Numbered from the stretch's first letter, positions 18,510 to 45,305 are shown. The stretch is 52,282 nucleotides of DNA from Chiloscyllium plagiosum (GCF_004010195.1 NC_057752.1:11910777-11963058), one strand, 5' to 3'. Numbers and translations: made by a program. The notes: generated by a model not told the origin, from the sequence alone.

Positions 18510-18789
18510 ATGACAACCGGACAGTTCCTGCTTGAGGTCCTCGATGAACTGAGCGAAAATGATTTCGAAAGGTTCCGATTCCATCTCGAGGACAGCGCGG
18601 AATTTAAACCGATAGCCCGCGGGCGGTTGGAGGGAAAATCTCGGCAGGAATTGGCTTCTCTCCTCCAGCACATTTATGGAAAGCAGGCTCGAGATATCAG
18701 CAGAAAGGTCCTGCTTCAAATTCCCAGGCATGACCTAGTGGGGAAAATGTTTGGAGACGGAGACATGAGTGGCTCCGAGGGCACTCGAG
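18510..18789 (+). CDS. PYD-DD adaptor, exon 1 (pyrin domain)
   Basis: Kozak context ACACCATGA. MTTGQFLLEVLDELSENDFERFRFHLEDSAEFKPIARGRLEGKSRQELASLLQHIYGKQARDISRKVLLQIPRHDLVGKM shows the PYD pattern. Donor G|GTAACA at 18790, phase 1. Confidence 0.9.
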
Positions 18790-21316: not shown

Positions 21317-21409
21317 TGCAGAGGAAGAGAGAGAGACTGAAGGACTGTGAATCTGATGGAGCTCTGTCTGAGCCTTCAGACAATGAAATGATCATGTCAA
21401 AGAAAAACA
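21317..21409 (+). CDS. PYD-DD adaptor, exon 2 (linker)
   Basis: ctctttttcatAG acceptor, A|GTACGT donor; 93 bp, phase 1-1, open: (V)QRKRERLKDCESDGALSEPSDNEMIMSKKN. Absent from the ORF track. Confidence 0.8.
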
Positions 21410-21624: not shown

Positions 21625-21914
21625 AGGTGGAGCCAAAGATACTGACAGACAAAAAACTGATGCAATTGGCCAAAAACATGGGGCATAATTGGCAGCAAAT
21701 TGGAATCCAATTCCTAGACCTGCAAAGCCACGAAATTGAACAATGTGAAGCTCAGCAGCGGTTAGTTGTCTTGCAGAGATTTGAAATGCTCAAACGCTGG
21801 AGAAACCGCGAAAAGGAGGGAGCCACTGCTGTCAAACTTCACTCCATTCTTTCTAACAAGGAATGCCCCATTAGTTCTGCACAATTGAATTGTCTTCTTG
21901 AAGAAAACCCATGA
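21625..21914 (+). CDS. PYD-DD adaptor, exon 3 (death domain)
   Basis: Strong T-tract and gcAG acceptor, phase 1. (K)VEPKILTDKKLMQLAKNMGHNWQQIGIQFLDLQSHEIEQCEAQQRLVVLQRFEMLKRWRNREKEGATAVKLHSILSNKECPISSAQLNCLLEENP* has the DD signature LA..MG..W..IG / EI / ML..W..R....AT...L. Confidence 0.9.
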
Positions 21915-23402: not shown

Positions 23403-23696
23403 AGTGGATCAGTGGTTAGCACTGCTGCCTCACAGCACCAGGGTTCCAGGTTCAATTCCAGCCTCAGGTGACTGACTATGTGGAGTTTGCACATTCTCCC
23501 CGTGCCTGCATGGGTTTCCTCCCACAGTCCAAAGATGTGCAGGTCAGGTGAATTGGCCATGCTAAATTGTCCATAGTGTTAGGTGTATTAGTCAGAGGGA
23601 AATGGGTCTGGGTGGGGTACTCTTTTTCGGAGGGTTGGTGTGGACTTGTTGGGCTGAAGGGCCTGTTTCCACACTGTAGGGAATCTAATCTAATCA
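23403..23696 (+). mobile_element. tRNA SINE (HE1-like)
   Basis: CAGTGGTTAGCACTGCTGCCTCACAGC head; AATCTAATCTAATC tail. Confidence 0.85.
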
Positions 23697-24049
23697 AGGG
23701 AATCTAATTTTACAGCTGTCCTGGCACCTTCCAGTTAAGGCCACGCCCCAAACCCAGCCAATGGGAAAAAAAATGTTATTTACACTTCTACAAGTTGACA
23801 GTGGACACCCACCCCTCCCCGACCACATCTCAACCCCACACATCTTCACACCAAAGTAACCACCCCTCACTCAGAATAACAGATAACTACCAAATGAATA
23901 CAATATAAAACAAACCAGATTTTACACCAAAGCAATACCAAGCCTCTAAGGCCTGAGACCACAAAAGGGAAAAGAACAAAGAAAAAGAGAAGATTAAAAA
24001 TAAATTATACCATTGTCCGCACATATCTTTTCCTTTTTTCCCCCTCGGT

Positions 24050-25048
24050 CCAAGTCTATTATTTCAATGAGTACAAAAATTCTTTTGCTTTTTCCGCCCA
24101 GTCGAAATTGTAAACAGATTCCCTCATAATTAAAACATAGCACTGCCGGTTACCTCAGAGAATATTGAATATTTGAGTCTCTTAATTTTTTCTTTACATC
24201 ATCAAAAGTCTTCTTTTTCTTAATCATGGTCCCAGAAAAGTCTTGAAAAAACATTATCCTCAAACCATGATAAACCAGAGCTGTGGATCTCTTCCCAGTC
24301 TTCTGGCTGTTTTTATTATTAACTGCTTCTCTTTATAGTGCTGGAGTTGCACTAGGACTGGACAGGGGCACTAATCCAGCCTGGACCTGAATATCGCGAT
24401 CCGGTGGGCCCGCTCCACACTCCCCTCACCCAACTCTATCTCCAGCCCCAGCAACTCTGGGAGCCACCTCTCAAGAAATTCAGCAAGGCTTTCGCCATCG
24501 TCACATTCCTGAAAGACACACAACAAGTTTTTTCTCCAACCTCAGTTTCTGCGGTCGTCTACTTGTTCCAGCAGGGCCCGAACCTGGCTTTCCAAGGTTC
24601 AGACCCCCCCCCCTTGGAGCTCTCCATCACGACCGCGAAGGCTGCGGTCCTGTTCCACCACTTCCACACGCCGATCCAAAGCCTGGACCTCCTGCTCATG
24701 CTTTGTCAGCATGGCAGTTATCAGTTCCAGCACTCCCTCAATTTTTTTCAGTTTTGCAAACTCCATGAGTAGATGCTGCTGCTCCTCCACCAAACTTAAA
24801 AGGCGCCGCCACAGGAGTCGAAGCAGCAGCTGTGGGTGTGCCCGACACAGAAGCAGAGTGCCATGCCTGCTGCACTCCCCTAGCTCCATCCTTTAGATGT
24901 CTTCATTTCAACTCCAGAGTCTCTAAATCCTAATTTAAAGGGGTTCTAGGTGCTCTACCTATTTTGTACTAAAAAGTTTCCACTCAAGATATGGCACAGA
25001 GCCCAACACAGCAGACTTCTCAGACTGCCACCATCTTGAATCTCCCCA
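24050..25048 (-). mobile_element. L1-clade LINE 5' fragment (degenerate ORF1)
   Basis: 5' end GGGGAGATTCAAGATGG; coiled-coil segment HEQEVQALDRRVEVVEQ; ORF1 C-terminal FQDFSGTMIKKKKTFDDVKKKLRDSNIQYSLR*PAVL. Confidence 0.75.
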
Positions 25049-26374
25049 TCATTAGACTTTTAATTCTAGGTTTTTATTGAATTCAAATTCCACCATCTGC
25101 CATGGCAGGATTAGAACCTGGTCTCCTGAACATTATCTGGGTCTCTGGTTTAACAGTTTAATCACTCTTTAATCTTCTGAATTCTAGGGTTGACAAACCT
25201 AGTTTTTAAAAAAATTCTTTTATCCCTTGGAATCAAGATGTCTCTCAAGTCCATCTACAGTGCAATCTTCAATAACTCTCCTAAATATGCTCACAACTCT
25301 CCCAGTGTGGTCTGTAACCAGGGTAGGGCATATACGTAACAGAGAATGCTAGAGAAACCCGTGGTGAGAGAGAAAGTGAACGTTTCATATCCAATATGAC
25401 TATCCTTCAGAACGTTGCCAGTGCTGAAAATAAAAATAACAATACATTTAGAAAATAATCTTTTTATTGTAACATGCAGCTGAAAATAGAATAGTGAAAA
25501 TAAAATTAAAACTACACAAATTAAACTATATCCCTCCAAAATCCCAAGCCTGCGCAAGCTAATAAGTCCTGATTTCAAGCACAAGTTAAATATTGCATTC
25601 TTTTCAGCACTGCAACCAAAAACAGAGGAGCAGGTTTTTAAGGAAATCAAAAAGGGAGTGCAAGCACCCACAACCAATACATACATGGTCCACAGACCCC
25701 ACAGCGCCATAGAATATGCATTTGGGTTAGGAGTCCATGAACTATCGCACCCTCAACCCCAGATCCCCGACAGAGAGGGGGAGGACTCCCATGTTGAGCT
25801 GGGGATCCCCACCGGCTGGTGGCAAATGGACACGCTGAGCCGTGTCTATGCAGTGGATGAGGGGAATCAGGTGGACAGTGTGCAGCAGCAGTCGATACTG
25901 CCATTTTATGCCCTTAAAGGGGGCAAAACTAAAATTCCAGAAGGGGCTCAGGCTCTTTAAAAGTTTTTTAAAAAAAGTAAAATATGGTAATGCTTGGAAC
26001 CAATGGGAATGTGGTTTGTGTTTTAAAGCTGTTACAAGAATATTTTGGGAGACAGGAAGGTTGTTCCAGACCCCCTAAATTTCTTTATTCTCTTCTCCTC
26101 CCCCCCCCAGTAAAAACTTGTAACTGAACCATCTGTATCTAGGAAGCACTCATCTTGGGATATCAAGTGACAGGAAAGTGTAGATTAATTGACTGTTCTC
26201 ACTTGAGGATATTTGTATCCTTATCTACTCCCAAAATCTTACACCTTGGGTTCACTAAAGAGGCAACCAGAAAATTAAATCTCATCTTGTAATCAAAAAA
26301 TTGTTTTCTGGGACTTCAAAATCTTGCTGCTAGCAACAATTCATCCTGGAAGAAGTAAAGAGGAAGGTTCTCCT

Positions 26375-26469
26375 TCACTGCAGATCTTTAGCATCTTGAA
26401 ACTTTTCCACGGAGCTGTTTGTCGAAATCGCCACTCCAAAATCGGAATATTGTGACTCAGATGTACCCA
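26375..26469 (-). CDS. TNFRSF-like receptor, last coding exon
   Basis: Acceptor attttttgtatttcAG, phase 1 as required by the preceding exon; (V)GTSESQYSDFGVAISTNSSVEKFQDAKDLQ*. Minus-strand AATAAA at 26089-26084 and 25468-25463. Confidence 0.65.
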
Positions 26470-29400
26470 CTGAAATACAAAAAATATCAGAAATTTTCAA
26501 ACTATACAAGCTATTTCACAAAGAGCACAAAACCAGTCCCAGTGTGGGAAAGGACAGTCATGTTGAACTTGGGGCAAGATAATTGTTAGACCTCAACTGG
26601 AGTATTGTATACAGTAGTGAACACCTCATTATAGGAAGACTATGAATGTATTGGAGACAGTGCAGAAGCATTTTACAAGAATAATTGTAGGAATGAGAAA
26701 CTTCAGTGATGAAGATAGATTGAAGGAGTTGGGACTATTCTCCTTTGAGAGAAGGCAGCTGAGAGGAGATTTGATAGAGGTTTTCTGAGTCATGAGTGGG
26801 CCAGGCAGAATAGATAGGGAGATGTATTCCCACTCGTGAAAGGAAAACGAATGTGATGTGCAAAGTAAGCAAGGGTGATATGACAAAAAAATGAATTCAT
26901 ACAGCAAGTACTTAGGATATGCAATGCACTCAATCGAGGCATTCAAGAGGGCAATGGCTGATTATTTGGAGAAAAATAATGCGCAAGTGTTTCAGGAAAA
27001 GTCAAGATTAGCACTAGGTAATGATACTAGTTTAACAAGCCGGTGCAGAGATGATGGGCCGATTATTCTGCGATAATCCTCCCGTCCACTTTCCTGCCTT
27101 TTCTCCATAACTCTGGATTCCCATATTGATCAAAAATCTATCTCAGCCTTTAAGCATTTCAAGGCCCAGTCTCTGCAGAGAAGAATTCCACACATTCAGC
27201 ATCCTGAGAGAGAAGAAATTCCTCATCTCTATCTGAAATGGGTGACCCATTACTCAGATTATGCCTTCGGTCCTAAACCCTCCCAGAAGGGGAACTAAGG
27301 AAGGTGATGACCTAATGGTATTATCACATTAAATATATGCCCCCTCATTCTTCTTCCTTTCGTGAGGGGGAATATTTCTCCCTATCTAATCTGTCTGACC
27401 CACTCATGATTTAGAAAACCTCTATCAAATCCCCCATAAGAATTGTAACTGAAGAATCTGTACCTATGACGACTTAATATTAATCCAGAAACTCCACTAA
27501 CGTTCTGGAGAACATTCCACCACAGCAAATGGTGGAATTTGAATTCAATAAAAGAAAATTAAGAATCTGCTGAAAACCACAAAACCATTGCCAATTGTTG
27601 GAAAAACCTATCTGGCTCACATATATCCTTCAGGGAAGGAAGTTTGCCATTCTCACTGGATTTGACCCCCACTCTCGTTCCATAGAGAGTAGTTGAGAGT
27701 CAACCATATTCTGACATGGCTCAGTAAGCCACTCAGCTGTCTCAACTGCTACAAAGTCTCAACAAAAATGAGACCAGATGTAATATCTGGCATTGACCGA
27801 GACACAGCACAGAGGCTGTTCAGGAATACCGCTCAGGGCATCTATGAATGGGCAATAAATGCTGGCCAGCCTGTGACACCCACATCCTGCAAGTGAATTT
27901 TTTTAAAAAATCTTCTACGTCTACCCTGTTAAGACCCCTAAGAATCTTATATTTTTCAATAAGGATACCTCTCATTCTTTCGGATTTTAATGAGTATAGG
28001 TCCAATTAGCTTAACCTCTCCAGACCCGGTATCTGCCTAGCGAACCTTCTCTGGACTGCCTCTAATGCCAGTACATCTTTGCTCAGACAAGGGGCCTAAA
28101 ATGGTTCACAATGTTCAAGGTGTGGTCTAACTAGTGCCTTGTATAAATTTACAAATTCTTCTTTTTGTCTACTTCTGCCAAATTAACTTTCCCAACCTAC
28201 ATGAAGCCTGATTTCCCTTATAATGTACTACCATTTTTACATGCGCTCTTTGTCTACCGATTTCTTCTTTGTCAGCTACTGTTAGAGGGCCTAGAGACTG
28301 CAAAACTGATTCACTGTGAACAGTTGAAAACTTTCCAAGGTCAGTCATGCTGTCCTTAATTATTGACTGGACCTAGCATTAGTGAATGTGAATTGGTCTA
28401 CAAGCTAACTGGTCTACAATTCCTTTTCTCACTTTTCCTAAATAGCTGAATGACATACAATTTGCCAATCTACAGGAACAGTTTTTAAATGAAGAGAAAT
28501 GTAGAAGATTATATTTCAGACATCTGTAACATTTTCATTTACTTCCTTTAAAAAGATACAGAAATAGGTATTCAGAAACCACATGGCGATTTGTCACCTT
28601 TCAGTACCAATATTTTTGTCAGTAACATTATTGTGCTCATGTTAGTTTTGGAGAGTCCTTGACCCTGCTTCAATATTAGAATGTTTAGCAGGCTGACCTC
28701 TTCCTCTGCCAAAAATAGTACAAAATGATGGAAGTAACATTTTCACTGTTGGTCTATTCTGTTACTTCGATTGCACATCCAAGTACTTTTTAAAATGTTG
28801 AGGGATTCTGCTTCTGCCACCCTTTCAGGCAGTGAGTTCCCAAGGATGGTGACAATCTGAAAGGGTTTTCCCTCAAAGCCCATCAAAATCTCTCATCTCT
28901 TATCCTAAATCTATATCCTCGATTATGGACCGTACAATTAAGGGCAATAGATCCTTCCTATTCTCACTAACTGGGTCCCTCATTGGTCTCTCCTCAGCCT
29001 CCTTGGTTCCAGTGGAAACAAACTTCAGCCTATCCAGTCTTATCTCATAACTAAAATTCTCCAGTCCTGGTAACATCCTCATAAATCTCTTCTGCACCCT
29101 CTAATACGTTCACAACTTTTCGACAGTGTGATCAGAACTGCACACAATACTCCTATCGTGGTCAAACTAGTGTTTTATACAATTCCTGCATAATCTCAGA
29201 GCTCTTAAACATGGACCCAAAAAAGGCCTCAAGTCTTCTTGCCCTCTATATCTTCTTATCCAGCCATCTTCATTGATCTGTTCCTCTACTCTTCTCAGTA
29301 TCTCTCCATTTGACATCAGCCCTCTCCAAATGCATAACCTCACACTGCACTGGACTCAACTCTATTTGCCCCTGTTCTGCCCAGCTGACTGGCCCATTGA

Positions 29401-30419
29401 TACCTCCCTGTCGTCTCTAGCTTTCTCCCTCGCTATCAGAATTACAGCCAATTTTTGTATTGTCTGCAAATATCTTAATCATAACCCCTATATATTCAAA
29501 TCCACATCATTGACGTATACCACAATATGCAATGGAGTAGTACTGAGCACTATGGAACCTTACATGGAAGCAATTTTCCAGTCACAAAAACATTTCTGCC
29601 TCTGAGCCAATTTTAGATCCAACTCACCACTTTGTCTTAAATCCCATGGGATTTTACATTTGTGACTTATATGGACTTGATGAAAGCCTTGCCAAAATTC
29701 ATATTTACTACAATCAATTACTCCCATCAACACTCCAGGTCACAACCTCAAAAAATATAGTCATATCTGACTGACCTGACTTTGCCTTACTAAATCCATG
29801 ATGATTGTATAAAGATTATGAGGTACATTGATAGGGTAGATGGGAAAGCACTTTTTCCATTAGTAGAAGAATCAATAACCAGAGTCACAGATTTAAAGTA
29901 AGAGATAGAAGGCGAAGAGGAGAGTTGAGGAGAAATGTTTTCACCCAGAGGGTAGTGGGCATCTGGAACACCCTGCCTGAAAAGGGTGGTTGAGTTTTAA
30001 ACTCTCAATATTGAAGCAGTATTTTAAATATTCACTTATATTATCGCCTCCAAGGATATAGGCCAAAACCTGAAAAAATGAGATCGGTGTAGTCAGATCT
30101 TTGTTGACAAGCATGGGCCAATGGACCTCCTTCTGTGCTGTAAGTGTCTTCAAGTCTATGGTAAAGGTTATGGCTTTGGAAGGTCCTGTTGATGGAAGCT
30201 TGGTGACTAAACCTTATACCTGGTAGTCACTGCTAAATTATGTGAATTGGAGGTGGTTGGTGTGTCTATCAAGTGAGCTGCTTTGTCCGGGATGATATCA
30301 CTTCTTATGTGCCATTGCAACCATAACTATCCAGGAAAGTGGGGAGTATTTCATCACACTCCTAGCTTGCATCTTGAAGATGGTGGACAGATTTTGGAGA
30401 GTCAGGAGCTGGGTTAAAA

Positions 30420-31590
30420 CATAGAACATTACAGCGTAGTACAGGCCCTTCGGCTCTCGATGTTGCGCTGACCTGTGAAACCACTCTGAAGCCCATCTAA
30501 CCTATACTATTCCATATGCCTATCCAATGACCATTTAAATGCCCATAAAGTTGGTGAGTCTACTACTGTTGCAGGCATTGCATTCCACCCCCCTACTCCT
30601 CTGAGTAAAGAAACTACCTCTGACATCTGTCCTATATCTATCATCCCTCAATTTATAGCTACGTCACCTCGTGCTAGCCATCACCATCCGAGGAAAAAGG
30701 CTCTCACTGTCCACCCTATCTAATCCTCCAATTATCTTTTATGTCTCAATTAAGTCACCTTTCAACCTTCTTCTCTAACGAAAACAGTCTCAAAAGACCC
30801 TCAGCCTTTCCTCATAAGACCTCCCGTCCATACCAGGCAACATCTTAGTAAGTCTCCTCTGAACCCTTTCCAAAGCTTCCACATCCTTCCTATACTACGG
30901 TGACCAGAACTGTATGCAGTACTCCAAGTGTGGCTGCATCAGAGTTTTGTACAGCTGCAGCATGATCTCATGGCACCGAAACTCAATCCCTCTCCCAATA
31001 AAAGCTAACACACCATATGCCTTCTTAACAACCCTTTCAATCCAGGTGGCAACTTAAGGATCTATGTACCCAGACACAGAGATCCCTGTGCTCATCTACA
31101 CTACCGAGAATCTTACCATTAGCCCAGTACTCTGTATTCCTGATACTCCTTCCAAAATGAATCACCTCACACTTTTCTGCATTAAATGACATTTGGCACC
31201 TCTCAGCTCAGCTCTGCAGCTTATCTATGTCTCTCTAACCTACAACATCCTTCATCACTATCTACAACTCTGCCTACCTTAGTGTCATCCACAAATTTAC
31301 TAACCCATCCTTCCATGCCCTCATCCAGGTCATTTATAAAAATGACAAACAGCTGTAGACCCAAAATAGATCCTTGTGGTACACCACTAGCAACTGAACT
31401 GCAAGATGAATATTTCCCATCAACAACCATCCTCTGTCTCCTTTCAGCTAGCCAATTTCTGATCCAAACCACTAAAATACCTTCAATCCCATGCCTTCAT
31501 ATTTTGTGCAATAGCCTACCCTGTGGAACCTTATCAAACGCCTTACTGAAATCCATATACACCACGTCAACCGCTTTACCCTCATCCAGA
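30420..31590 (-). mobile_element. CR1 RT/3' fragment
   Basis: SGVPQGSILG, SKFVDDTKVG; 3' tail near 30420. Confidence 0.88.
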
Positions 31591-31837
31591 TTCCTAACAT
31601 CTGACCTGCTCTTGTAGCTACTATATTTATATGTCTGGTCCAGTTCAGTTTCTGGTCAATGGTAACCCCTAGGATGTTGATAGTGTGCAATTCAATGATT
31701 ATAATGCTAATGCATGACAAGAGGAGACAGTTAGATTTTCTCTTGTTGGAGGTGGTCATTTCCTGGCATTTGTGTGGCACAAATGTGATTTGCCACTTTT
31801 CAGCCCAAACCTGAACGTCGCCCATTTCTTGTATCAG

Positions 31838-32012
31838 AGTTAAACATCACATGACACCAGGTTATAATTTAACAGGTTTATTTGAAAAGTACAAGATTTC
31901 AGAGCACTGCTCCTTCGTCAGGTAGCTATGAAGGAGCAGTGCTCCGAAAGTGTTGGACTATAACCTGGTGTTGTGTGATTTTAACTTTGTCCACCCCAGT
32001 CCAACACCAGCA
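31838..32012. mobile_element. Palindromic Penelope-derived element inserted in an older LINE remnant
   Basis: Inverted arms with decayed hammerhead cores on opposite strands (CTGACGA-aggagcagtgctct-GAAA on minus; ..TGA-aggagcagtgctcc-GAAA on plus). Confidence 0.7.
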
Positions 32013-33167
32013 CCTCCCATCATCAGTATCTGAGGATTCACAAATGGTGCTGAATATTGCGCAATCATTGGCAAACATCCCCACTTCTGACCTTACAATG
32101 GAGAGAAGACCATTGATGGAGTAGCTGAAGATGGTTGGGTCTAGGACACTACCCTGAGGAACTCCCGCAGAGGTGTTCTGTAGCTGTGATGACGGACCTT
32201 CAACAACCACAACCATCTTCCTATGTGCCATGTATGACTCCAACCAGCAAAGAATTTGCCCCGATTCCCAGGGACTCCAGTTTTGCTAGGGCTCCTTGAT
32301 GCCACACTTTCGGGGCAACTGAGCATGCATGCTCACTCAGAAACACACATGCATTGGTTCCAGACTCTCTAGGTTACTGCATCATGCAGAAAGTACAGAC
32401 TACTCATGCACAGAACAGGCACAACCCTGAAATGAGAATTGGACATGATTGGAAGAAGACAACAGATGAGATCCACTCACACCCCCAAACATAGGTAGAT
32501 AATGTTATGATCACCATTTGATAAATACTCTTTGATAAATGACTCTATGAATCTTGCACCATTAAGATGTGAACTAAATGTGTCTCATTATGGATTACTA
32601 ATCTAATCTAATGTGGAATGGCCCTTGTTAGTTCTAGGGCATCATATTTGAGAAAATTACCTTAGATACACTCTAGAAATTCACTACCTTTCTGACATCT
32701 ACTAGTTTGATTATTCCAATCTGAAAGGCAAAATTTTCCCATTACCATCTTTCCTACATGCTTGGCATGATACATTCTACTACTTTACAACTATGATGAC
32801 CGTTTTCTATCTCTTAATTCTACCTATAAAGTTTCCACTACATACACTACTGAATGACAAAAGGATACAACGAGGGGTAACATCTCTTCAATCAGTCATT
32901 ATGACTATCTCTCCCATGACTATTTTCCAGAGTCTTTTCTGCGGACCATATAATCTTGTTTATTCAGTCCCTAGTCTTGATTGGCTTACATCCATATCCC
33001 AGTACAGCTACCACATCTGACCCTCCAAGTTGAACTTGCACCTGCAAATCATTACTGTCCATAATAACTGAATCCAGGAAATTCAGTAAGGTTAATTTCA
33101 TGCAGACATATTTGAAAACTGAAGACCAGAGGCTGGTCCGTCCTCACTTTAATGCTGACACACTCAC

Positions 33168-33324
33168 CATCTTTCATTTTTACTGGGGCAAAGTCATGGA
33201 TTGGCTTGGTATGAGTTGAGAAACTATCCATTGACTTCTCTTCTAATGAAACCCGCAAAAATGTTTGGTGGCCCTCCTCTTGCACAGGTCGCTGGATAAC
33301 TGCTTCCTTTTCCTTAGTCTTCTG
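33168..33324 (-). CDS. TNFRSF-like receptor, cytoplasmic exon with TRAF-binding motifs
   Basis: CAGCAG acceptor, G|GTGAGT donor; 157 bp, phase 0-1; only one open frame: QKTKEKEAVIQRPVQEEGHQTFLRVSLEEKSMDSFSTHTKPIHDFAPVKMKD. Confidence 0.78.
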
Positions 33325-33854
33325 CTGAGTGAGGACATTGCAATTAAAAAAACAAATCAAGCCGGTCATTAAATTACAAATTATTGACTTGGGAACTCCA
33401 GCACAGTTCCCATACATTAATATTAGAGATGAGAAGGGTATCCCGACCACCCCTACTGCCAAATTCTACACTGTACTCCAACAAGAAGCAGCTTTGAACT
33501 GGGAGCTTTAGATCATGAAATCTTCACTAATATCTTTTAAACAAGATAATGATTTTTGATGTTTTGATTCGGAGACTTGAATGTTGCCCCTGTAGAGAGA
33601 AGCTAACCTAGTCCTCTCTCAGATTAGAAAATTTCTCTCATGTGACAGATGATCACCACTCATCTCTGGGTGTCAGCTTCCATTACAACCATCTCTCTCA
33701 ATCAAATTAACCAATCAATCAATACTGGTTTTCTCACACTGCATGTGGGTGAAAGGTGGACAAATGCTAGTTTTGGCTTGTAAACCATTTGATATCGTTA
33801 CTGTTGTACCAAACTGACCAACCCAGATTGTAACATCATTACATTTGGGGAAGC

Positions 33855-34190
33855 TGTGGTGCTGTAGTGATAAATTACTAGGCTTATAATCCAGATCCCA
33901 AGGCAAGTGTTCTGAGGACATGGGTTCAAATCCCACTATGGCAGATGGTAAAATTAGAATTCAGTAAAATCTGGAATGAAAAGCTAGCCTAATGCTGACC
34001 ATGTAACCATCATTGATTGTTGCAAAAAAAAAAAGGCTTCCCTAATGTTCTTTAGGAAAGGAAATCGGACCTCACCTGGTCTGGTCTACGTGACTTGAGA
34101 CCTACAGCAATGTAGTTGACCTTTATCTACCCTGGGCAATTCAGGGTGGACAATAAATGTTGGTTCAGCCAGTGATGCCTACCTCTCATA
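33855..34190 (+). mobile_element. tRNA-headed SINE sharing its 3' tail with the LINE at 45790-47070
   Basis: GGGTTCAAATCCC B-box; tail GGGCAATT..GGG..CAATAAATG.TGG..AGCCAG also seen near 47010-47045. Confidence 0.7.
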
Positions 34191-35665
34191 AATGAGTGGA
34201 AAAAAAAATCTTACTGTGAAACAAAGGTTGCAGATAACCTAAAGGCTGATTCCATCATTTAAAAAGGCAGAAATAATTGACAAACTCACGCACAAATGCT
34301 GACTGAACAACCCTACTATGTTATCAATGGAGTATTGAGAATGAAGGAGAAGGATTAGAAGTAGAATCCAAACACTAATTAAAGAATTGCCATGGCAAAA
34401 CAAAATCATCCTAACTAACAAGAAACAAGCAGAGACAAATTCAATTGGAACAGAAGGCATTTCATACACTTGGGATAACTCAGCATAATAGGGACAAATA
34501 TCACATGCAATTGAGGGACACAAAAACATCCAGAAGATTAACCTCTGGAAATCTTGAAAGAAACAGATATGAAATTGTAGCAGTAATGGTAAATGGTCTT
34601 TTAGTGAACATCTAATTCAAACTTAGTCTCAGGTTAGGAGAGAATTGTTCAATGGCTATTTACATCAATTAATATTCCTGTACATTTTTCTAAGCTCATC
34701 ATTGAATGGCATTATTAAATAGATAGCAATACCACTTTGGTTAGTTGATAGCACTCCCAGGTCTGGATAATCACCTAATGGGGATTAGAAAGTGGGGACA
34801 AGAGCGCTGAGAGTGCTTTTTCTGCATCTTCAAGAGTTCAATAAAGTCAGGGATGGTTCTAATTTGACCTATCACATACAGTTCCTACCTTCAAGAAAAT
34901 AATGGAGGAGATCACAGCCAGAGATCTAAAGGCCTATCAGCCTCATTCCCATGAGTAGGAAGATACTACAATGGATCCTAGAAGATTTATGATCACCGGG
35001 AAAGGGATGGGCCATTACAAACTCACAACATGAAGAAACATTGGTAAGAAATCACTACGTAGTGGTCAAGCAAAATTCAGTATTTATCTGATAAGTGTAT
35101 TCTGCTTTGGTCCTACCAATGTGCAAAACATTACATTTATCCAAATTAACTACCATTTACAACGTATGGTCCATTCCCCAGCACATCTTTTGCATTTGAT
35201 TTCATTTCTTTCTTAATTGTTGTATTTGGTGTCATCTGCAAACCTGCTGCCCATGTTCCCAACAGCACTGCTCACGTCATGCAAACAGACTGTGAAGCTT
35301 GTGAGTGTTGAGTCAATTGCTGAGTGACACCAGTAGTCATAGGTCTTCAAGCTGAACCATCTACACCAATAACTAGTGACTCTCTTGTCAGTCATCTCAA
35401 ACACTGGTTGGCTAACAAAAATGAATTTTTGTTACTCTTGTATCTCATCTCCATGGAAACATTGAGTGTTACAAGGAAACAAAACCAACCCGGGATGGAA
35501 ACTGATCTCAGATCATTTTGAATTGGGCTCCAATGGGAAAATAGATTGAGTTTGCTGTAAGCTAAGTGGCACATTCACTCCCATCCACAGCACACTTTAC
35601 CTCCCTTTGTTTGAACCCAGATTACAAAGAACATAAACTTCATCCAGGAAACAAAATTGGCTTAC

Positions 35666-35685
35666 CTCTAAACACCATGCGATAG
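35666..35685 (-). CDS. TNFRSF-like receptor, 20-bp juxtamembrane microexon
   Basis: tttttgtcttttAG|CTATCGCATGGTGTTTAGAG|GTAAGC; phase 1 to 0, exactly bridging the TM and tail exons; (A)IAWCLE. Confidence 0.75.
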
Positions 35686-35754
35686 CTAAAAGACAAAAAT
35701 ATAAAATAGTTTTTAAATAAGATTCTCACAAATTCCTGATAATAATCAAACAAA

Positions 35755-35960
35755 AACAAAATTTTGTAAATACTCAGCTGGCTTGCAGCATCTCTGAAGA
35801 CAGAAACAGTCAAACGTTTCAAATCGAATACAACACTTCTTCAGAGCTGCACTTGCAGTTTGGAAGAAGTTATATTAGAGTGTAGACATTAACTCTGTTT
35901 CTCTCTTCACAGATGCTGCCAGACCAGCTGAGTATTTCCATCACTTCCTGCTTTTATTTC
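35755..35960. mobile_element. Degenerate palindromic Penelope-derived element
   Basis: Inverted arms AAATACTCAGCTGG..GCAGCATCT / AGATGCTGC..CCAGCTGAGTATTT. Confidence 0.6.
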
Positions 35961-37327
35961 AGATTTCAAACAGTGTTTTGCTGTCACTTTAATACCTGGT
36001 GACACTGAACTAGGTTCCTTGCAATCTTTCAGCTGTGCTCTTCTATTCATGACAATTCTTTTGATTGCTTGCTGGGTTGATCTAATGGTTTGCTCAGTGG
36101 GTCAGGCCCATCAGTCAGTCCCACAAAGTTGGCTGATGTAAGTGCACACTAGTCTACTCCCCATATAGTTCCAGGGCATCAGCCAAGGCCCAACCTTTCC
36201 AAGTGGGGCTGAGTAAGTTGACGTGAGACAAGGACAACAATGACATGGCTCAGGCAATTTCTACAGGCCATTGCTCTGAAGCAGGTGAGACACATAGTGC
36301 CCAGAAAACACACAAAATTAACAGAACTCTGGTCACTCAATGGAAACTGCAATGTCAACAGAAATTACAGGTGTGCCTGTGACAGATCTGTGCCAAGGTG
36401 ACCACTTGTCCTGTATTTCAGGTGGCTTGATGGTTACCAGGATGCATTTTATCGCTTATCTTTCATTGTTCATTTTCACACACATGCAATTCTGCACTTT
36501 GTACCTGCTGCTCATTCAGACAACTCCAGCAGCACCTCATGCCCAAACATCTTTTAACCTTTTCTACCACAGTCAGTCAGCCTGATCTACACCAGTTTGA
36601 CTCAGTACTCACCTCAGTTACACATTATGAGAAATAGAAAGAGTCTTATCAGCTCTCTTGTATCCCCACATCCATTTTACTGGGAATCCATTAACTTGCC
36701 ATGCTGGAGCCAGTGCTGAAGGACCTCGACAACCTGTTCACCCTAAACCCACCCCATGTCCATTACAAGTCCCTCAAACAAATCAATATCCTCCCCTCTC
36801 ATCACACCACTCTCTGCTCCTTGTCTCCCCCTCATTATGTCTTTTTCTATTCTCTAAACTCATGCTAAACTTCTCCTACACAGTCCCAGGTCTCCAATAT
36901 CCCACCCCTATACTCTGCACCTAGCTGCACAGGGTCCCTGCACTACAGTCATTCAAATTCTGGGCTCAAATGATCAAATCTGTTATCAAATCTGTCCACA
37001 ACCCCTCTATCCAACCTGAGCCAGCTTTACCTGTCAGCTGTTCTCGTCGCAGACTCAACACTCTCTCAGACACCAAGAGACAAACTCTTTGCTGCTTCTG
37101 TAGTTTACTCCAGACACAACCCTGCTTTTGGTAATGTTTCACCAAAAGTCACCACTTTTCATCACCTCTGTCCCTGGTTCTTTGATAGCTTTGGCCCTAA
37201 CAACCACCTCCAAGCCTTGAGATTTCCCTTTGCCAGCACGCTGGTTAAGAGCTTTAACATATTTCCATACTGTGGACAGTCTGGGGATGCAAACCCCATT
37301 CACAAGCTGCTGAAATTTGAGGAATAC

Positions 37328-37470
37328 CTGAGCAGAAGGGAGTGGTCAAGGATTTCCAGTGCAAGAACAAAAGTATCCCAACTAAAACGCATAACAGCAC
37401 AGAAAGGACTATAACATAGATGTCAGAAACGCATCCAGATATGTCCCCAGTCTGTCCAGGCACACATTCT
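37328..37470 (-). CDS. TNFRSF-like receptor, transmembrane exon
   Basis: tttgttttgtttccacAG acceptor, CAG|GTATTC donor; 143 bp, phase 2-1; ECVPGQTGDISGCVSD-IYVIVLSVLLCVLVGILLFL-HWKSLTTPFCS contains a 20-aa hydrophobic helix. Confidence 0.8.
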
Positions 37471-38279
37471 CTGTGGAAACAAAACAAACATTGTCATAAA
37501 TTCATCAATGCAGAGTGGGTTTGAGGGTCTGAGGAATAATGAAATGGAATGGTGTAGTCTCAGTGACAGTTCCACATTTGTGTCAATGCTTCATGTTAAT
37601 GAAGCCACTGAGTCATGAAAGAAGTTGTTCCCCAACAATGTGACAGCGTCTTCCAAACCTGTGACCTTTACCACCTAGGATAATGGTAACAAACACTTAG
37701 GAGCATTGTCACTTGCAAATTCCCTTCTATAAGGAATAAATGACAACTCAGCCCACTGCACACACATTCCCTAATCAGCCAAATTTAAAAAAGGAAAGCC
37801 CACATCCCAGGAGTGAATAAAAAAATTCAAAAAGGAGACATTTCACATAGACACATGATCACATTGATGACAAATCTAACCTAGTACACATTTACAATTA
37901 CAAAACATTGTTGAATTTTAACAGTACTAATAGGTTAAGATAGAGAATAAATCTCCTACTACTCTTTTAAACCGAAATTAAAGCTCCTTCGATGCCGTCC
38001 CCAGCAAACACTCACAGGACAGGGACAGCATGGGGTTAGATACCAAGGAAACCTCCCTTTAGTCTTAACCAAATGCACAGCTCCCTCTACTATTTTAAAC
38101 TGAAAGTAGCCTCAACAAACACTCTCAGGACTGATACAGAGTGGGGTTAGATACAGAATAAAGCTCCTTTACAGCAATGAGTTACAAACTCAACCTCAGC
38201 CTATTGAGAGTCCAGTGGTCATTTGATAGTTGTCCATTTCCTGCACCTGTAGCCTCTGTGCGAGACTGCCCATATAATA

Positions 38280-38565
38280 GGTGGGACGAGTGGCTCAGCA
38301 GTTAGCACTGCTGCCTCACAGCACCAGGAATCCAGGTTTGATTCCAGCCTCGGGTGACTGTGTGGAGTTTGCACATTCTCCCAGTGTCTACGTGGGTTTC
38401 CTCCGGGTGCTCCGGTTACCTCCCATAGTCCAGGTGGATTAGCCATGGGAAATGTGGGATAGGGTCGAGGGTTAGGTCTGGGTGGGATGCACTTCGAAGG
38501 GCTGGTGCAGATTTGATGGACCTAATGGCCTCTTTCAACACTGTAGGGATTCTGTGATTCTACGA
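38280..38565 (+). mobile_element. tRNA SINE (HE1-like)
   Basis: GTGGCTCAGCAGTTAGCACTGCTGCCTCACAGC head and typical body. Confidence 0.82.
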
Positions 38566-40759
38566 GGGATTCTATTGATTCTAACAGATTATACTGTACA
38601 TTTAAATCACTGGTATTGAGCATTGCTCAACAGCAGCCCAAAATACAATACCATGCATGGATTATGGCATACTGCTAGCTAACACACTTGTTTTGAGATT
38701 GAAACAGGAAAGAACCATTCATCTCCTTAATCCTGCTCAGCTGTTCACATAGCTATTTCACACAGCTAATATTTTTTCTCAACTCCATCTACCCATTTTT
38801 GTTTCCCATCTCTGATAACTTTGCTCAACAAAAAAAGTCTATTGATCTCAGTACTGAAAATCGTAATTTGCCCAAATTATTCAGTGTTTTCAGGGAGAAA
38901 GTTCCAGCTTTCAGTATTCCAATCTCATAGACAATTTAGTGCAGCTCTTTCAAACCAATGGGCTTTCCATATTGTGAACCACACGTCCTACAGGTGTGTT
39001 TGTTGACGAAGGCTGTTCTCCATTGTATCAAGGTGGTAGAAGAACTGTCGGCAGTCCTCTATCCTCTGAGTTAGAAGATCAAAGTTCACGTCTTATTAGA
39101 GTGACTTCAGCATATTTTGCAGATCAACACTCCCAATATTACATCAACAGTGTTGCACTGCCAAAGGTACCATCTTTCAGAGGAGACATTAGCCAAGATA
39201 TCATTTACTTTTCAGGAGAAAGTGAGGACTGCAGATGCTGGAGATCAGAGTAGAGGGTGTGGTGCTGGAAAAGCACAGCTGGTCAGGCAGCATCAGAGGA
39301 GCAGGAGAGCAGAAGCTCTTCCTAACGAAACATTTCCCACATTAAAATACTGTAGTTGATAAAAAACATTTGCTGGCCGCAAAGGTGCTTTGAAATGCAA
39401 GTCTCTCTTTCTTTCACTGGGGTAGTGGTGTAATCCTGAAAAGGTGAGTGCAGCCCCGGGAGGTAGGGAGGTGAGTGAGTGAGTGGTGTAAGCGTGGAAT
39501 GGCATGCTTTGGGGTTATGGTTTCTGACCTTCCTTGCTGGACAGCGGCTGTGGACATTTGATAAGGTGAGGCTCAGAGATGACACTGAGAACCCATGACT
39601 GCAGAAACATTGCAGACTGTTCTAATTCCTGCTTTCATTATCATGAAGACAGATCAGAAACTCCATATACTATAGACATTTTTAACTTTTAATTACAAAT
39701 TTATTTTAGAAAGGAAAAACGCGAGGATTGCTAAAGACAAGAATAGATGTGGATGTAAATTCAGCGCTGTTTCGCAAAGTCCAGTGTGGGACCAATGGAA
39801 TACCACACCTGCAAAGTATCATGGAAACATCAAATAGACACAACAAAAAGACACAATGGAGGGGGAGGTGGTTATGGCTATCTTACCCCACTCAGCAGAA
39901 AACCAACTTGTGCAGATGTTTATGCTTTGTCGTTCCATGAATATCTTTTTAAAAGGGGATAAAAACAAAGGTATTCATGTTACTAGCCCGGGTTCAAGTT
40001 AGAATGGGCTGTGAAGGTCAGAGTCAAAGAACCACCCACTCGTCACCCCTGTATTGCAGGTAAAAGTTTGCCTACGGAGTGCTAGATGCCAACTAGCCAG
40101 TCAGAAGGAAAACAGGACAACTCAGTACTGCCAGCCAACCACCATATAAAGGAATTATAGGAATTCAGAATTAAAACAAAAGGATTTCAATTAACTGTAA
40201 TGACAAGAATCCCAAAATGTTCAACTGTCAACATTTTACTTTGTACACTTCACAAATCACCAAGTGAGACGAATCCATGTAACCTTTAGCCTTTGTCTCA
40301 TTTTAGACTCACTTTTTTATTCCAAACAGTGCATATACAAGATGCTATTAATTATTTTCACATTTAGTAAAATAAAATTCACTATTTTGTTTAGAAAGCT
40401 TGATTAAATTGGTTCCTGTCAAAATATAAATTCATTTGGTCTGGGAAAAAGATATTATCAAACGAGGGGCTCCTTTATAACCTGAGCTTGTTCCAACTGA
40501 GAGGGTGGGTGAAAAAAAAAAAGGTGAGCCAGTTCATTTCTCTTCACTGAAGGAGGTTGATAATTTGGGGCTTCCACATGCAACTGTAGTAACTTGGGAA
40601 ACATCACTCAGGATCTGGTCAACACACAATTCAGGATCCTGAACTGAAAGGGGATAACAAAGGCTGTCAAAACCCATGCAACTACACATCAATAGGATTT
40701 AGCAACTGAGAGAGACAGAGACAGATACCCAGAGTCAATGCCAGCACACGGAGGGGGGG

Positions 40760-41165
40760 GACCCAGAGTTAATGCCGAGAGATAGAGAGACAGAGACAGC
40801 GACACAGAGAGAGAGAGAGAGAGCGTGAGCGATAGACAGCGAGAGAGCGAGAGCGAGTGACAGAAAGCGAGAGCGAGTGACAGACAGCGAAAGAGCGAGC
40901 GACAGAGAGAGCAAGCGAGCGACAGCGAGAGAGCGAGAGTGACAGACAGCAAGAGAGCGAGCGACAGACAGCAAAAAAGCGAGAGCGAGCAATAGACAGA
41001 GAGAGAGTGAGAGTGAGTGACAGCGAGAGAGAGAGAGCGAGAGAGCGACATACAGAGAGAGCAAGCGACAGACAGAGAGCGAGCAAGCAAGCAACAGACA
41101 GAGCAAGAGAGAGTGAGCGAGAGAGAGAGCGAGCGCGAGAAGGCCACAGGGCGAGAGGGACAGAG
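40760..41165. repeat. Degenerate (GA/GAGC/GACA)n purine-rich microsatellite
   Basis: About 400 bp of imperfect GA, GAGC and GACA units with very few T on the + strand. Confidence 0.92.
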
Positions 41166-41262
41166 CGAAATCTGGTGAAGAGGAAAGACTGATGCTACCG
41201 GGACATTGGTAGGCCATATCTGCAAATCTGTTGGAATGAAAGTTATCTCACAGTCAACTCAC

Positions 41263-41332
41263 CCTGTCCCTTCTTCAGGTGAAATACTCCCAGTTTCTTG
41301 ACGGCGGCATTCTGTGTCTTTCCTGTAAGCTC
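41263..41332 (-). CDS. TNFRSF-like receptor, candidate extracellular stalk exon
   Basis: ccttgttcctcAG acceptor, GG|GTGAGT donor; 70 bp. The phase 1-2 reading (G)AYRKDTECRRQETGSISPEEGT(G) joins the TM exon in frame. Confidence 0.6.
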
Positions 41333-42596
41333 CTGAGGAACAAGGTTTGAGCAGTCAGTTCTTATAATGAGGTGTTTATCACAGTTCTAGTCTGAGTTGC
41401 AATGACAAACACTGAGCAGTAGAGATCCCAGTTATGTACACTCCTGACCTCACTTTCATAAAATTGTAATAGGATTATAATATGCAGGATTGGCTATTTA
41501 GCCACTTCAGGCTGCACTACATTTTAACACAATCATGGCTGGTCTGATAGTGTCCCTGACTCCATTCTTCTACCCAATGTCTATCCCATAACCCTTGACT
41601 CCACTATCGATCAGAAAACTGTCAAACCCAGCTCTGAATCTATTCAATGATCCAGCCTCAACCAGTCTCTTCAAATGGATTCCATTGACTAACGACCTTA
41701 TGAGAAAATAAATTTCACCTCCTCTCCATCCTAACTGGATTTCATTTTTAAACAACGTCCCCCAGTTCTAGATACCCATGCATGGAGAAATACCTTCTTG
41801 GCATCTATCCGGTCAAGTTCCTTCAGGGCCTTAAGATTTCAATTAAATCCCATTCATTCTTCGAAACGGCAATAAGTATCAGCCCAACCCGCTCAACCTT
41901 TCCTCTCAAGGCAAACCCTTCTTCCCAGGAATCAGCCAAATCCTCAATTCCTTCCATATAAGTATGTCCTTCCTCGAGGAAGGAGACCAAAACAGTACAC
42001 ATCACTCCAGGTGCAGTTTAACCAATGGCCTATCCAGTTGTAAAATGACTTCCCTATTTTTTATACTCTTACAATAAAGACCAACATTTCATTTATTATT
42101 ACTGCAACTAATTATTACTATACTGATCTTTTGTAAAAAAAACACCCAAGAGAACCAATGAATGTTGGAAATCAGAATTGTTACTGACTTTTTGGGATTC
42201 ACAAGGTCATCTCGATCCCAGTGCATTCCAGCATTCTGCACTTTTCCTCAATTTAAATAAAAAGATTCTGCTTCAATAGAAGTCATTGCTCATTATAAAC
42301 AGAAATTCTGTCTGATTTCAGAACTTTCTCTTTGTCTCAGCTGTCAAGGTCCATTGGAACACTCCTATTACTGCTCTGGCAGATTTTGGTCAACACAACA
42401 CAGCAAGTGAGAGCAGTGGTTCCCTCTGAGGCAAAGAGTCAAGTTCACGTCCCACAGCAGACTTAAGCATGTGGTCAAAGCTGACACTATTGACCCAACC
42501 CAACTGGGAACGTGCGCTGACTCTCAACTTCTGCTACTCTCAGGGATGCCACAGAAGTTAGTGACTGAATTGATGTAGACAAAGTCCCCAATTTAC

Positions 42597-42655
42597 CTGT
42601 CTGTTGGAACCAAGTTAACAGAAAACACTGACCAGATTTCTGTATTTGACAAGAA
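42597..42655 (-). CDS. TNFRSF-like receptor, tentative upstream exon
   Basis: Pyrimidine tract then tgtAG; CAG|GTAAAT donor; 59 bp, phase 2-1, SCQIQKSGQCFLLTWFQQT(G). Phase-compatible, but other splice choices exist nearby. Confidence 0.3.
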
Positions 42656-43880
42656 CTACAATTTATGATAAACAAAAGGAAAGTCAGAGAGAGTGAGAGC
42701 TATTTCCCTTCCAGCACTACTGTTCATACCACAAGTTGGTTCCTGGCCAACTGAACAATCACAGATTTGGTGTCAATCTTTGGCATTCACAACAGGTTTG
42801 TATAATTGTGACCAATCAGCTCCTTCTTGTTGGCCAAATTTCAATCTGCTCGCACACTCCTATGCCATGCCATCTATGAACATTGTTGCTGCTCTGTCCA
42901 GGCCGTGGGCAAGATAAACACAATGCAAACAAATTTTAATAGCTTGTTTTTAAAAGTGCAGCAGTTCCTTCCACAGCCCTTGGCGTTAAAACAGTCACTT
43001 TTTCTCCCCCCCCCCCCCCAATTTTTGTCCACAATCTCAAATTTAGAAAATAAAATTATATAGGCCTACACTGTTGGAGGGTCAGCACTGAGGGAGCGTC
43101 GCAGTGCCCAGGGAGCGTCGCAGCACCTGAGGGTGCATCAATCTCAACTTTGGATCTACAAATATCCAAAGTTCTCTGGGGCATAGAGTTCCAAAGATTT
43201 ACAATTTCTCCTCATTGCAGTTGGAAATAATCATCCTGTCAGAGGAACATAGGAGGCCATTCAGCCCCTCGTGTCTGTTCCACCATTCAATGAGATCATG
43301 GCTGATCTGAGACTTCAGTCCATATACCTGCCTTTGGCCCATATCCCTTAATACCTTTGCATAACAAAAACGTCTCTATCTCAAATTTAAGATTAACAAT
43401 TGATCAACCATCCATTGGTTCAAAACCTCTCCCACCCTTTTTGTGTGTAGAAGTGCTTCCTAACATTTCTCCTGCATGGTCTGGCCTGAATTCTCAGACT
43501 AAGCCTCCTTGATCTAGGATCTCCAGCCAGTAGAAATAGCCTATCTTTATTTACCTTGTCTTCTCCTGTTAAGATCATTAAGAGATCGATCAGATCACCC
43601 CTTACAACTTTAAATTCTAGAAAGAGAAAACGGGTCAAATTGTACAATCTCTCCTTGGAACCTAACCTCTGCACTCCAGGTATTATTCTTGTAAGCTGAT
43701 GTTGCATTCCCCTCAAGGTCAATATATCCTTGCTAAAGTGTGTTGCCCAGATCTGCTCACAGCACTCCAAGTGGACCTAACCAGAGCCTAATCCTGAGAC
43801 TGTGTCTCCAAGTTCTCGGCTCCCCAGCCATAGGAAACAACCTCGCTGCACATACCCTATCAAGCCCCATCAAAATCTTA

Positions 43881-45305
43881 AGACCATAAGACATAGGAGC
43901 GGAAGTAAGGCCATTCGGCCCATCGAGTCCACTCCGCCATTCAATCATGGCTGATGGGCATTTCAACTCCATTTACCCGCATTCTCCCTGTAGCCCTTAC
44001 TTCCTTGTGACATCAAGAATTTATCAATCTCTGCCTTGAAGACATTTAGTATCCCAGCCTCCACTGCACTCTGTGGCAATGAATTCCACAGGCCCACCAC
44101 TCTCTGGCTGAAGAAATGTCTCCGCATTTCTGTTCTGAATTTACCCCCTCTAATTCTAAGGCTGTGTCCACGGGTACTAGTCTCCTCGCCTAACGGAAAC
44201 AAATTCCTCACGTCCACCCTCTCCAAGCCATGTATTATCTTGTAAGCTTCTATTAGATCTCCCCTTAATCTTCTAAACTCCAATGAATACAATCCCAGGA
44301 CCCTCAGCCGTTCCCCGTATGTTAGACCTGCCATTCTAGGGATCATCCGTGTGAATCTCCGCTGGACACGCTCCAATGCCAGTATGTCCTTCCTGAGGNN
44401 NNNNNNNNNNNNNNNNNNNNNNNNNNNNNNNNNNNNNNNNNNNNNNNNNNNNNNNNNNNNNNNNNNNNNNNNNNNNNNNNNNNNNNNNNNNNNNNNNNNN
44501 NNNNNNNNNNNNNNNNNNNNNNNNNNNNNNNNNNNNNNNNNNNNNNNNNNNNNNNNNNNNNNNNNNNNNNNNNNNNNNNNNNNNNNNNNNNNNNNNNNNN
44601 NNNNNNNNNNNNNNNNNNNNNNNNNNNNNNNNNNNNNNNNNNNNNNNNNNNNNNNNNNNNNNNNNNNNNNNNNNNNNNNNNNNNNNNNNNNNNNNNNNNN
44701 NNNNNNNNNNNNNNNNNNNNNNNNNNNNNNNNNNNNNNNNNNNNNNNNNNNNNNNNNNNNNNNNNNNNNNNNNNNNNNNNNNNNNNNNNNNNNNNNNNNN
44801 NNNNNNNNNNNNNNNNNNNNNNNNNNNNNNNNNNNNNNNNNNNNNNNNNNNNNNNNNNNNNNNNNNNNNNNNNNNNNNNNNNNNNNNNNNNNNNNNNNNN
44901 NNNNNNNNNNNNNNNNNNNNNNNNNNNNNNNNNNNNNNNNNNNNNNNNNNNNNNNNNNNNNNNNNNNGAGGTTAGGCTAATTGGCCTATAGTTTTCCATC
45001 TTTTGCTTTGATCCTTTCTTGAACAAGGGGGTTACAACGCGATCTTCCAATCATCTGGGACTTTCCAGGATTCCAGTGACTTTTGAAAGATCTCAACCAA
45101 CGCCTCCGCTATTTCCTCAGCCACTTCTCTCAGAACTCCAGGATGCAGCCCATCGGGGAGAGGAGATTTATCAATTTTAAGACCTTTTAGCTTTTCTAGC
45201 ACTTTCTCTTTTGTAATGGCAACCATACTCAACTCAGCCCCCTGACTCCCTTTAATTGTTGGGATATTACTCATGTCTTCCACTGTGAAGACTGACGCAA
45301 AGTAT
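43881..45305 (-). mobile_element. Young CR1 copy spanning an assembly gap
   Basis: Open ORF2 C-terminus (ERVQRRFTRMIP..RHFFSQRVVGLWNSLP); KSPLPDGLHP and ENYRPISLT on the other side of the gap. Confidence 0.9.
44399..44967. other. Assembly gap (569 N)
   Basis: Run of N. Confidence 1.

Follow-up and report, generated by a model that had tools for sequence, protein, structure and literature searches.

Which receptor of the tumor necrosis factor (TNF) receptor superfamily is encoded on the minus strand of a 52,282-nucleotide (nt) stretch of a shark genome (Chiloscyllium plagiosum, GCF_004010195.1 NC_057752.1:11910777-11963058), and does it correspond to any receptor known from other vertebrates? 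This whole stretch is referred to below as the window, with positions counted from its first letter. We found that five exons in the window make up, once spliced, the 3' half of a TNF receptor family gene that is already annotated in this shark, hereafter the target. From sequence comparison we give a probability of about 0.62 to the reading that the target encodes a TRAF-recruiting receptor with three cysteine-rich domains, which likely represents an old paralogue lineage beside HVEM (TNFRSF14) and not HVEM itself.

The receptor gene and its product

A preliminary description, made from the sequence alone, had joined five small minus-strand exons into a hidden gene of this superfamily. These exons and the adjoining untranslated region (UTR) are:

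41263..41332, minus strand: exon for the last part of cysteine-rich domain 3 (Cys142), followed by a degenerate domain-4 start or stalk; residues 134-157 of XP_043537997.1
37328..37470, minus strand: exon with stalk, transmembrane helix (residues ~174-192) and juxtamembrane segment; 100% identity to XP_043537998.1, junction to the micro-exon in a contig of run X2 (probable RNA)
35666..35685, minus strand: 20-nt micro-exon; its letters lie within the joint 33323-37324 of run X2
33168..33324, minus strand: exon for the part of the tail that carries the two TRAF-type motifs, PVQE (224-227) and SLEE (237-240); tandem acceptors
26375..26469, minus strand: last coding exon with stop codon; the contig matches of the probable RNA runs X1 and X2 end exactly at 26469
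25463..26374, minus strand: 3' UTR; contigs extend to 25643 and 25535, AATAAA at 26089 and 25468, cleavage site putative

All five exons carry AG acceptors behind pyrimidine-rich tracts at the positions proposed earlier, the first four end in GT donors, and the intron phases 2, 1, 0 and 1 connect them to one open frame as described. The exons measure 70, 143, 20, 157 and 95 nt, and the joined frame of 160 residues, which is terminated by TGA at 26377-26375, is identical to residues 135-294, the C-terminal 160 residues, of XP_043537997.1, isoform X1 of a 'TNFRSF14-like' protein of C. plagiosum. A chance join is excluded because both sequences agree letter for letter. The gene is not hidden, as exactly this model already exists in RefSeq; it shares all five exons with the rebuilt frame without any sequence difference and is an automatic model with a similarity-based name. 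A search with the transmembrane exon retrieved six proteins among 22 candidates, the best of which was the TNFRSF14-like isoform X2 of C. plagiosum with 100% identity. Both isoforms are explained by the tandem acceptor of the tail exon: use of 33324 leads to isoform X1 and use of 33321 to isoform X2 (XP_043537998.1), which has one Gln fewer. Isoform pairs with or without one Gln are found in RefSeq for several sharks and rays. The minus strand at 32990-33041 corresponds to an alternative tail exon that encodes 14 residues in C. punctatum (P0003, P0009); with 52 nt between AG and GT it is 10 nt longer than the C. punctatum exon, so that a frame shift is expected.

To the positions 21500-41499 we compared four sequencing runs, none recorded as RNA; two of them (X1 and X2) are contig sets whose RNA kind was guessed. 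One contig of run X2 (depth 85.4) joined 33323 to 37324 with the letters of the micro-exon in between, and the order in run X2 was exon 37470-37328, micro-exon and next exon at acceptor 33321, not at the 33324 of the preliminary description. The last exon and the 3' UTR were covered without mismatch by contigs of run X1 (1665 nt) and run X2 (1906 nt), which continue past 26469 for 838 and 971 nt, respectively; both lengths are compatible with the remaining four exons (387 nt) together with 400 upstream coding nt. The probable-RNA contigs show two junctions directly and the third, at 26469, fits. The joints listed for the contigs in 21500-41499 do not include 41263>37470. The raw-read run X11, which consists mainly of repeat-derived reads, showed none of the five-exon junctions and run X12 contributed no reads, so that neither gives evidence either way. 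For residues about 1-133, tblastn with six proteins revealed nothing above noise in the window, which includes two N gaps of 569 and 500 nt. Therefore, the upstream exons should be located beyond position 52282, unless they fall inside an N gap.

The assignment to the TNF receptor superfamily, only indirect at first, was confirmed by a Pfam TNFR_c6 search on the full protein (3 stretches, E 3.6e-11); in XP_043537998.1 the three PF00020 stretches reach 43.7 bits at a cut-off of 29.4. The RefSeq protein has the cysteine-rich ectodomain of TNFR type that the earlier family call requires. Domains 1-2 and most of domain 3 were read from this protein and lie outside the window, in line with the earlier statement that the cysteine-rich domains are not visible here; that statement needs correction for the first exon, which holds the end of domain 3 with Cys142, a residue invariant in 18/18 alignment rows. 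A second correction concerns the Cys of 'GECVPG', which is private to C. plagiosum among the orectolobiform orthologues. A hydrophobic N-terminus, a candidate for a cleaved signal peptide, precedes Cys24 in the alignment, and one 19-residue hydrophobic segment with a mean hydropathy of 2.5-3.7 in 9/9 orthologues indicates a type I topology. The AlphaFold model from a 9-row alignment is poor as a whole (mean predicted local distance difference test score, pLDDT, 45.3; predicted template modeling score, pTM, 0.22), and the predicted transmembrane helix reaches a pLDDT of 65-82. Callorhinchus and Latimeria possess a complete domain 4, of which rays retain the first two cysteines; in sharks the stalk is poor in cysteines. 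We infer that this domain was shortened to a remnant in rays and disappeared in sharks. Isoforms without domain 3 occur in Hemiscyllium and Rhincodon (P0004, P0015).

A probable receptor lineage beside HVEM

A profile search covering 1.84 billion representatives yielded six matches above 195 bits, followed by a tail of HVEM/CD40-like proteins. Members were found in Pristiophorus, Heptranchias, Pristis (sawfish), three skates and Callorhinchus. The suggestion that the receptor may be shark-specific has to be abandoned in view of the members in sawfish, skates and Callorhinchus and of probable relatives in Latimeria (XP_064408380.1) and Polyodon (XP_041097630.1); judged from these sequences the gene is pan-chondrichthyan. 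The main tree was calculated from the cysteine-rich domains 1-3 (126 columns, LG+G4) with 46 rows picked from a 154-row tree, and three outgroups, P0164 (newt CD40), P0171 (TNFR2-like) and P0158, were left out. In this tree a branch with a support of 98/95 separates the 12 chondrichthyan members from the other rows, and the branch that adds Latimeria P0188 and Polyodon P0055 has a support of 98/90. Proteins from Amia and Lepisosteus (P0076, P0145), with a support of only 94/89, were not accepted as members. We infer that the lineage is older than the split of sharks and chimaeras, and probably older than that of sharks and bony fish.

The same tree contains a second chondrichthyan lineage of HVEM-like proteins (8 rows, support 96/91). 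This second gene is located on a different, longer contig than the target in Hemiscyllium (46.8 vs 23.6 Mb), Heterodontus (51.4 vs 37.8 Mb), Heptranchias (37.4 vs 28.3 Mb) and Rhinoraja (30.6 vs 11.5 Mb). Both bat HVEM and bird HVEM scored higher to the second gene than to the target in 4/4 species each, in a comparison that included only two genes per species and in which domain 4 adds to the scores. The target is probably a separate old paralogue because the second HVEM-like shark gene scores closer to tetrapod HVEM. The second lineage, for example XP_060708288.1 from Hemiscyllium and XP_067873021.1 from Heterodontus, shares RefSeq-style names, family and species with the target, but differs in its intact domain 4, its HPNG motif and its ELR1 score of 121.7 vs 77.7 bits. 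None of five second-lineage proteins checked (P0054, P0056, P0062, P0130, P0035) has a TRAF2-type motif in its tail. The second lineage has kept a four-domain ectodomain and lacks the TRAF2-type motif in the checked tails, while the target gene shows the reverse. A grouping of the target lineage with tetrapod HVEM was not recovered in any of four trees, and in the approximately unbiased (AU) test target lineage and mammalian HVEM as one clade received p = 0.049, both shark lineages together p = 0.11. In summary, the earlier proposal of a distinct lineage, which is not the plain orthologue of a mammalian receptor, can be upheld with moderate confidence.

Several observations weigh against this reading. 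Only 20/148 new profile matches were named. The AU value of 0.049 is borderline and the groups were named after earlier trees; second lineage and mammalian HVEM reached p = 0.20, 'not rejected', in a grouping that was never recovered. With outgroups included, newt CD40 and the TNFR2-like protein nest in the target group, which is a long-branch warning, and under a mixture model with 29 rows the target group obtained 67/69 with an unresolved backbone. The tree rows comprise only 126 columns and one CD40, without LTBR, RANK, OX40, CD27, 4-1BB and GITR. The score lead of the second gene originates partly from its intact domain 4, and the identities to bat HVEM are similar (33-37% vs 36-38%). Membership of newt CD40 P0164 and TNFR2-like P0171 in the target group was rejected, as we treat their position as long-branch attraction. 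The trees do not decide whether the target is a separate paralogue, an orthologue of HVEM or a receptor that arose on the CD40 side.

Profile comparison with solved structures gave ELR1 (93.5 bits), HVEM (78.9 and 77.8 bits) and CD40 (75.5 bits) as top scores, so that the HVEM type is best by a small margin; the best solved relatives of the target are ELR1, HVEM, CD40, OPG and TNFR2. ELR1 (PDB 3wvt) is presumably horse HVEM. The target could therefore be the shark orthologue or co-orthologue of HVEM/TNFRSF14, with LIGHT binding and TRAF2 signaling, and the second gene would then be the derived one. ELR1 and two chains of HVEM, which rank first to third among the solved matches, point in this direction, as do the TRAF motifs of the target, which resemble AVEE of bat HVEM and are missing from the checked tails of the second gene; the first ESM Atlas match was likewise a 'TNFRSF14-like' cluster, possibly the target's own. 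However, human HVEM leads CD40 by only 3 bits, the borderline AU value speaks against a grouping with mammalian HVEM, and HPNG(L/F) together with two extra domain-2 residues, common to the second gene and most HVEM-like rows, is absent in the target. According to the available text of PMC13612297, Tyr61 of HVEM is needed for binding of BTLA/CD160. At the corresponding Tyr after Pro-Gly of bat HVEM the target has Gln43; this Tyr is missing from bird HVEM and from the second gene of sharks as well, and hence the position does not discriminate. Taken together, we regard orthology to HVEM as unlikely.

A paralogue from the CD40 side, acting in the activation of B cells or antigen-presenting cells, seems even less probable to us. 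It would account for PVQE in the tail, which fits the CD40 TRAF2 site PVQET and also occurs in newt CD40, for the name TNFRSF5-like carried by several orthologues and for an LG tree in which newt CD40 attaches within the target group. This attachment carries the long-branch warning, however, and in 4/4 species newt CD40 gives a higher score with the second gene than with the target. Furthermore, Cys78 and Cys91, which are kept by the target lineage and HVEM, are absent in newt CD40 (the only CD40 row), and the strict TRAF6 motif PxExx(acidic/aromatic) is absent from 8/9 tails.

That the target is the shark version of LTBR or another named receptor without death domain (RANK, TNFR2, OX40, CD27, 4-1BB or GITR) we consider very improbable. 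TNFR2 was second in a single-sequence search, and the general exon layout is presumably that of such receptors, as stated in the preliminary description. The profile scores of 74 bits for TNFR2, 56 for RANK, 55.0 for LTBR, 39 for CD27 and 29 for OX40 fall behind ELR1 and HVEM, and the tail showed no homology match to these receptors. The earlier hint at LTBR, a WKS triplet behind the transmembrane segment, did not hold, since the triplet is not conserved and occurs in only 4/9 shark orthologues; with rank 24 of 54 distinct sequences LTBR was rejected as the identity of the target.

Cytoplasmic tail and predicted signaling

The receptor was proposed to recruit TRAF proteins and to lack a death domain, and both points agree with our data as far as sequence can tell. 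No Death family was detected by Pfam at E<=1 in 6/6 proteins, and the 102-residue tail is of TRAF type, with PVQE in 9/9 and S[V/L]EE in 9/9 shark orthologues, which predicts TRAF recruitment. Both motifs are 13 residues apart, and 11/13 invariant tail columns of the nine shark orthologues fall within a 19-residue motif block (residues 222-240), even though the distant shark orthologues share only ~50% identity. Both motifs or close variants are present in Heptranchias, Pristiophorus and Pristis and the first motif in Callorhinchus, and the Latimeria tail contains PTQE and an STVK segment resembling the SSV[E/K] end of shark tails. The wider form of the TRAF motif is [PSAT]x[QE]E. The TRAF argument stands on the conservation of the motifs because one motif match is weak: 5% of shuffled target tails contain two [PSAT]x[QE]E matches, which has to be set against the proposal, as do three skate models (P0036, P0037, P0186) with short tails lacking the motifs.

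In the available parts of these publications, Px(Q/E)E is given as TRAF2/3 consensus with PVQET as the CD40 site (PMC11117997), NF-kB signaling by human HVEM requires the TRAF2 site (PMC13612297), and TNFSF14/LIGHT is present in sharks (PMC7674686, PMC11762692). The receptor likely signals through TRAFs because it has no death domain and two motifs conserved in 9/9 sharks, and its likely role is that of a co-stimulatory receptor which recruits TRAFs. By analogy with the family, a trimeric TNF-family ligand would cluster three receptors; the most economical guess for this ligand, and the likeliest one, is LIGHT/TNFSF14 or one of its relatives. PVQE and S[V/L]EE would then bind TRAF2/3/5, and NF-kB/JNK signaling would follow in leukocytes. 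It counts against this proposal that ligand binding, TRAF binding and signaling are all deduced from sequence. A non-signaling decoy or decaying duplicate, as might be suspected from the loss of domain 4 in sharks, the short-tailed skate models and the isoforms lacking domain 3, is hardly credible given an open frame, tail motifs invariant across shark orders and spliced contigs at depth 42 and 85.

Genomic neighborhood and comparison with known systems

The next gene in the window lies tail-to-tail with the receptor gene and encodes an adaptor with a pyrin domain (PYD) and a death domain:

18510..18789, plus strand: adaptor exon 1, PYD (Pfam PYRIN E 2.8e-16)
21317..21409, plus strand: adaptor exon 2, linker; bounded by AG and GT, 31 residues 100% identical to P0021 in tblastn
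21625..21914, plus strand: adaptor exon 3, death domain and stop (Pfam Death E 7.8e-9)

The last adaptor splice is supported by a contig of run X2 whose match sets in exactly at 21625, behind 743 letters of other sequence. The adaptor has 220 residues, 209/220 of them identical to the Hemiscyllium protein P0021, and nine homologues were found among 37 candidates. The gene is conserved in at least seven other sharks and carries the annotations 'uncharacterized', 'caspase b-like' or 'pyrin-like'. In chordate Atlas clusters named 'FADD-like', PYRIN occurs in 75% and Death in 97%. In six other species adaptor and receptor orthologue are located on contigs of equal size, and in C. punctatum their locus tags are consecutive (chiPu_0018726, chiPu_0018727). 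Therefore, the gene pair is conserved at least at the contig level. The adaptor might serve as a link between PYD proteins of inflammasome type and complexes of death-domain proteins. A functional coupling of receptor and adaptor is unsupported because the receptor has no death domain. No study of the adaptor gene was found among the best 20 of 26 papers of the literature search. About 650 nt upstream of the adaptor start codon, a 53-nt unit is repeated in tandem at 17426-17856 (8.1 copies with 90% matches), in an array which looks derived from a common shark short interspersed nuclear element (SINE).

In the rest of the window, a scan of 121/192 stop-to-stop frames of at least 55 residues (1-18400 and 41400-52282, obvious remnants of long interspersed nuclear elements, LINEs, left out) gave no other gene, only 3 weak Pfam matches, all under cut-off. 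One of them, an intronless and frameshifted frame at ~6998-7398 on the minus strand (DUF716, E 2.3e-4, under cut-off), is probably a pseudogene; its start resembles what we take to be TMEM45/TEDDM1 proteins. In model P0020 of C. punctatum, the opposite strand at 7215-7418 is joined to the death-domain gene by a splice, which is probably an annotation artefact. Between the 3' ends of the two genes, a decayed coiled-coil frame without Pfam support at ~24100-24900 on the minus strand presumably resembles ORF1 of an L1-type element. Many CR1/LINE remnants are scattered elsewhere in the window.

The sizes of the contigs carrying receptor orthologues, 16.39 Mb in C. plagiosum, 16.41 Mb in Pristis, 28.81 Mb in Carcharodon, 12.23 Mb in Rhincodon and 19.65 Mb in Stegostoma, raise the possibility of X-linkage. 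In the accessible portions of the sources, elasmobranch X sizes are given as '16.4-28.8 Mb' (10.1101/2025.02.26.637739), and the X as ~12 Mb in an earlier whale shark assembly and ~20 Mb in zebra shark (PMC13100897). A size of ~17 Mb for the zebra shark X, stated in the portion at hand of another paper (10.1101/2022.10.17.512540), counts against this idea, as do the Heterodontus contig of 37.8 Mb and the contigs of two skates (8.1 and 8.7 Mb), which lie outside the published range, and the existence of small chromosomes of similar lengths; the whale shark assembly used in 10.1101/2025.02.26.637739 also falls outside the X range stated there. Based on the chromosome sizes in these five elasmobranchs, we put X-linkage of the receptor gene at about even odds. 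From what is accessible of the publications, the X of sharks shares homology with a portion of human chromosome 12 (10.1101/2022.10.17.512540) and is incompletely dosage-compensated in C. plagiosum (PMC11406177). If the gene is X-linked, females would have a higher dose without full dosage compensation, and the receptor would offer a testable case of a sex-dependent immune co-stimulatory receptor.

Combining these points, we can sketch a scenario that is speculative and has rather more against it than for it: early jawed vertebrates had two HVEM-like receptors, of which the target was lost in tetrapods and kept in sharks, rays and chimaeras and probably in coelacanth and paddlefish; in sharks it would hold the TRAF sites that the second gene lacks and reside on the ancient elasmobranch X, tail-to-tail with the PYD and death-domain adaptor. 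If true, this would describe a lost co-stimulatory receptor lineage, an orphan for a TNF ligand retained in sharks, and sex-linked dosage. The discovery of the gene itself is minor, as a RefSeq model with the right family name exists and the receptor is of an ordinary kind. The added value lies in the indications that cartilaginous fish have two HVEM-like lineages, in the possible X location and in the conserved adaptor neighbor. A second lineage of the HVEM/CD40 group in cartilaginous fish is a candidate partner for ligands without known receptor, and at least two distinct genes go under the labels 'TNFRSF14-like' and 'TNFRSF5-like' in the genomes of sharks. According to the available sections of PMC7674686 and PMC11762692, vertebrate TNF ligands have already been classified, including groups lost in mammals. 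Our literature search found no matching study of shark TNF receptors and no paper on shark TNFRSF14-like genes; subscription literature is mostly outside its range, and a description may exist. The accessible sections of PMC6001812 and PMC11599192 do not treat shark TNFRSF14-like genes, and those of PMC12318234 do not mention TNF.

Both genes can be compared with well-known systems. Like FADD and ASC, the adaptor is a two-domain death-fold protein, and its death domain is weakly nearest to FADD/CRADD. It differs from FADD in its N-terminal domain, which scores as PYD and not as DED, and from ASC in having a C-terminal death domain instead of a CARD. The receptor shares PVQE and a similar ectodomain score with CD40/TNFRSF5, but has another domain-2 cysteine pattern, no conserved TRAF6 site and, in sharks, three instead of four domains. 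Its closest solved ectodomains are those of HVEM (PDB 1jma, 4fhq; ELR1 3wvt), with the cysteine pattern of three full domains in common, and both receptors combine a short tail carrying a TRAF2-type motif with the lack of a death domain. In contrast to HVEM, domain 2 of the target is two residues shorter and contains neither an HLNG/HPNG motif nor an equivalent of Tyr61, domain 4 is lost in sharks, and two TRAF motifs follow each other at a distance of 13 residues.

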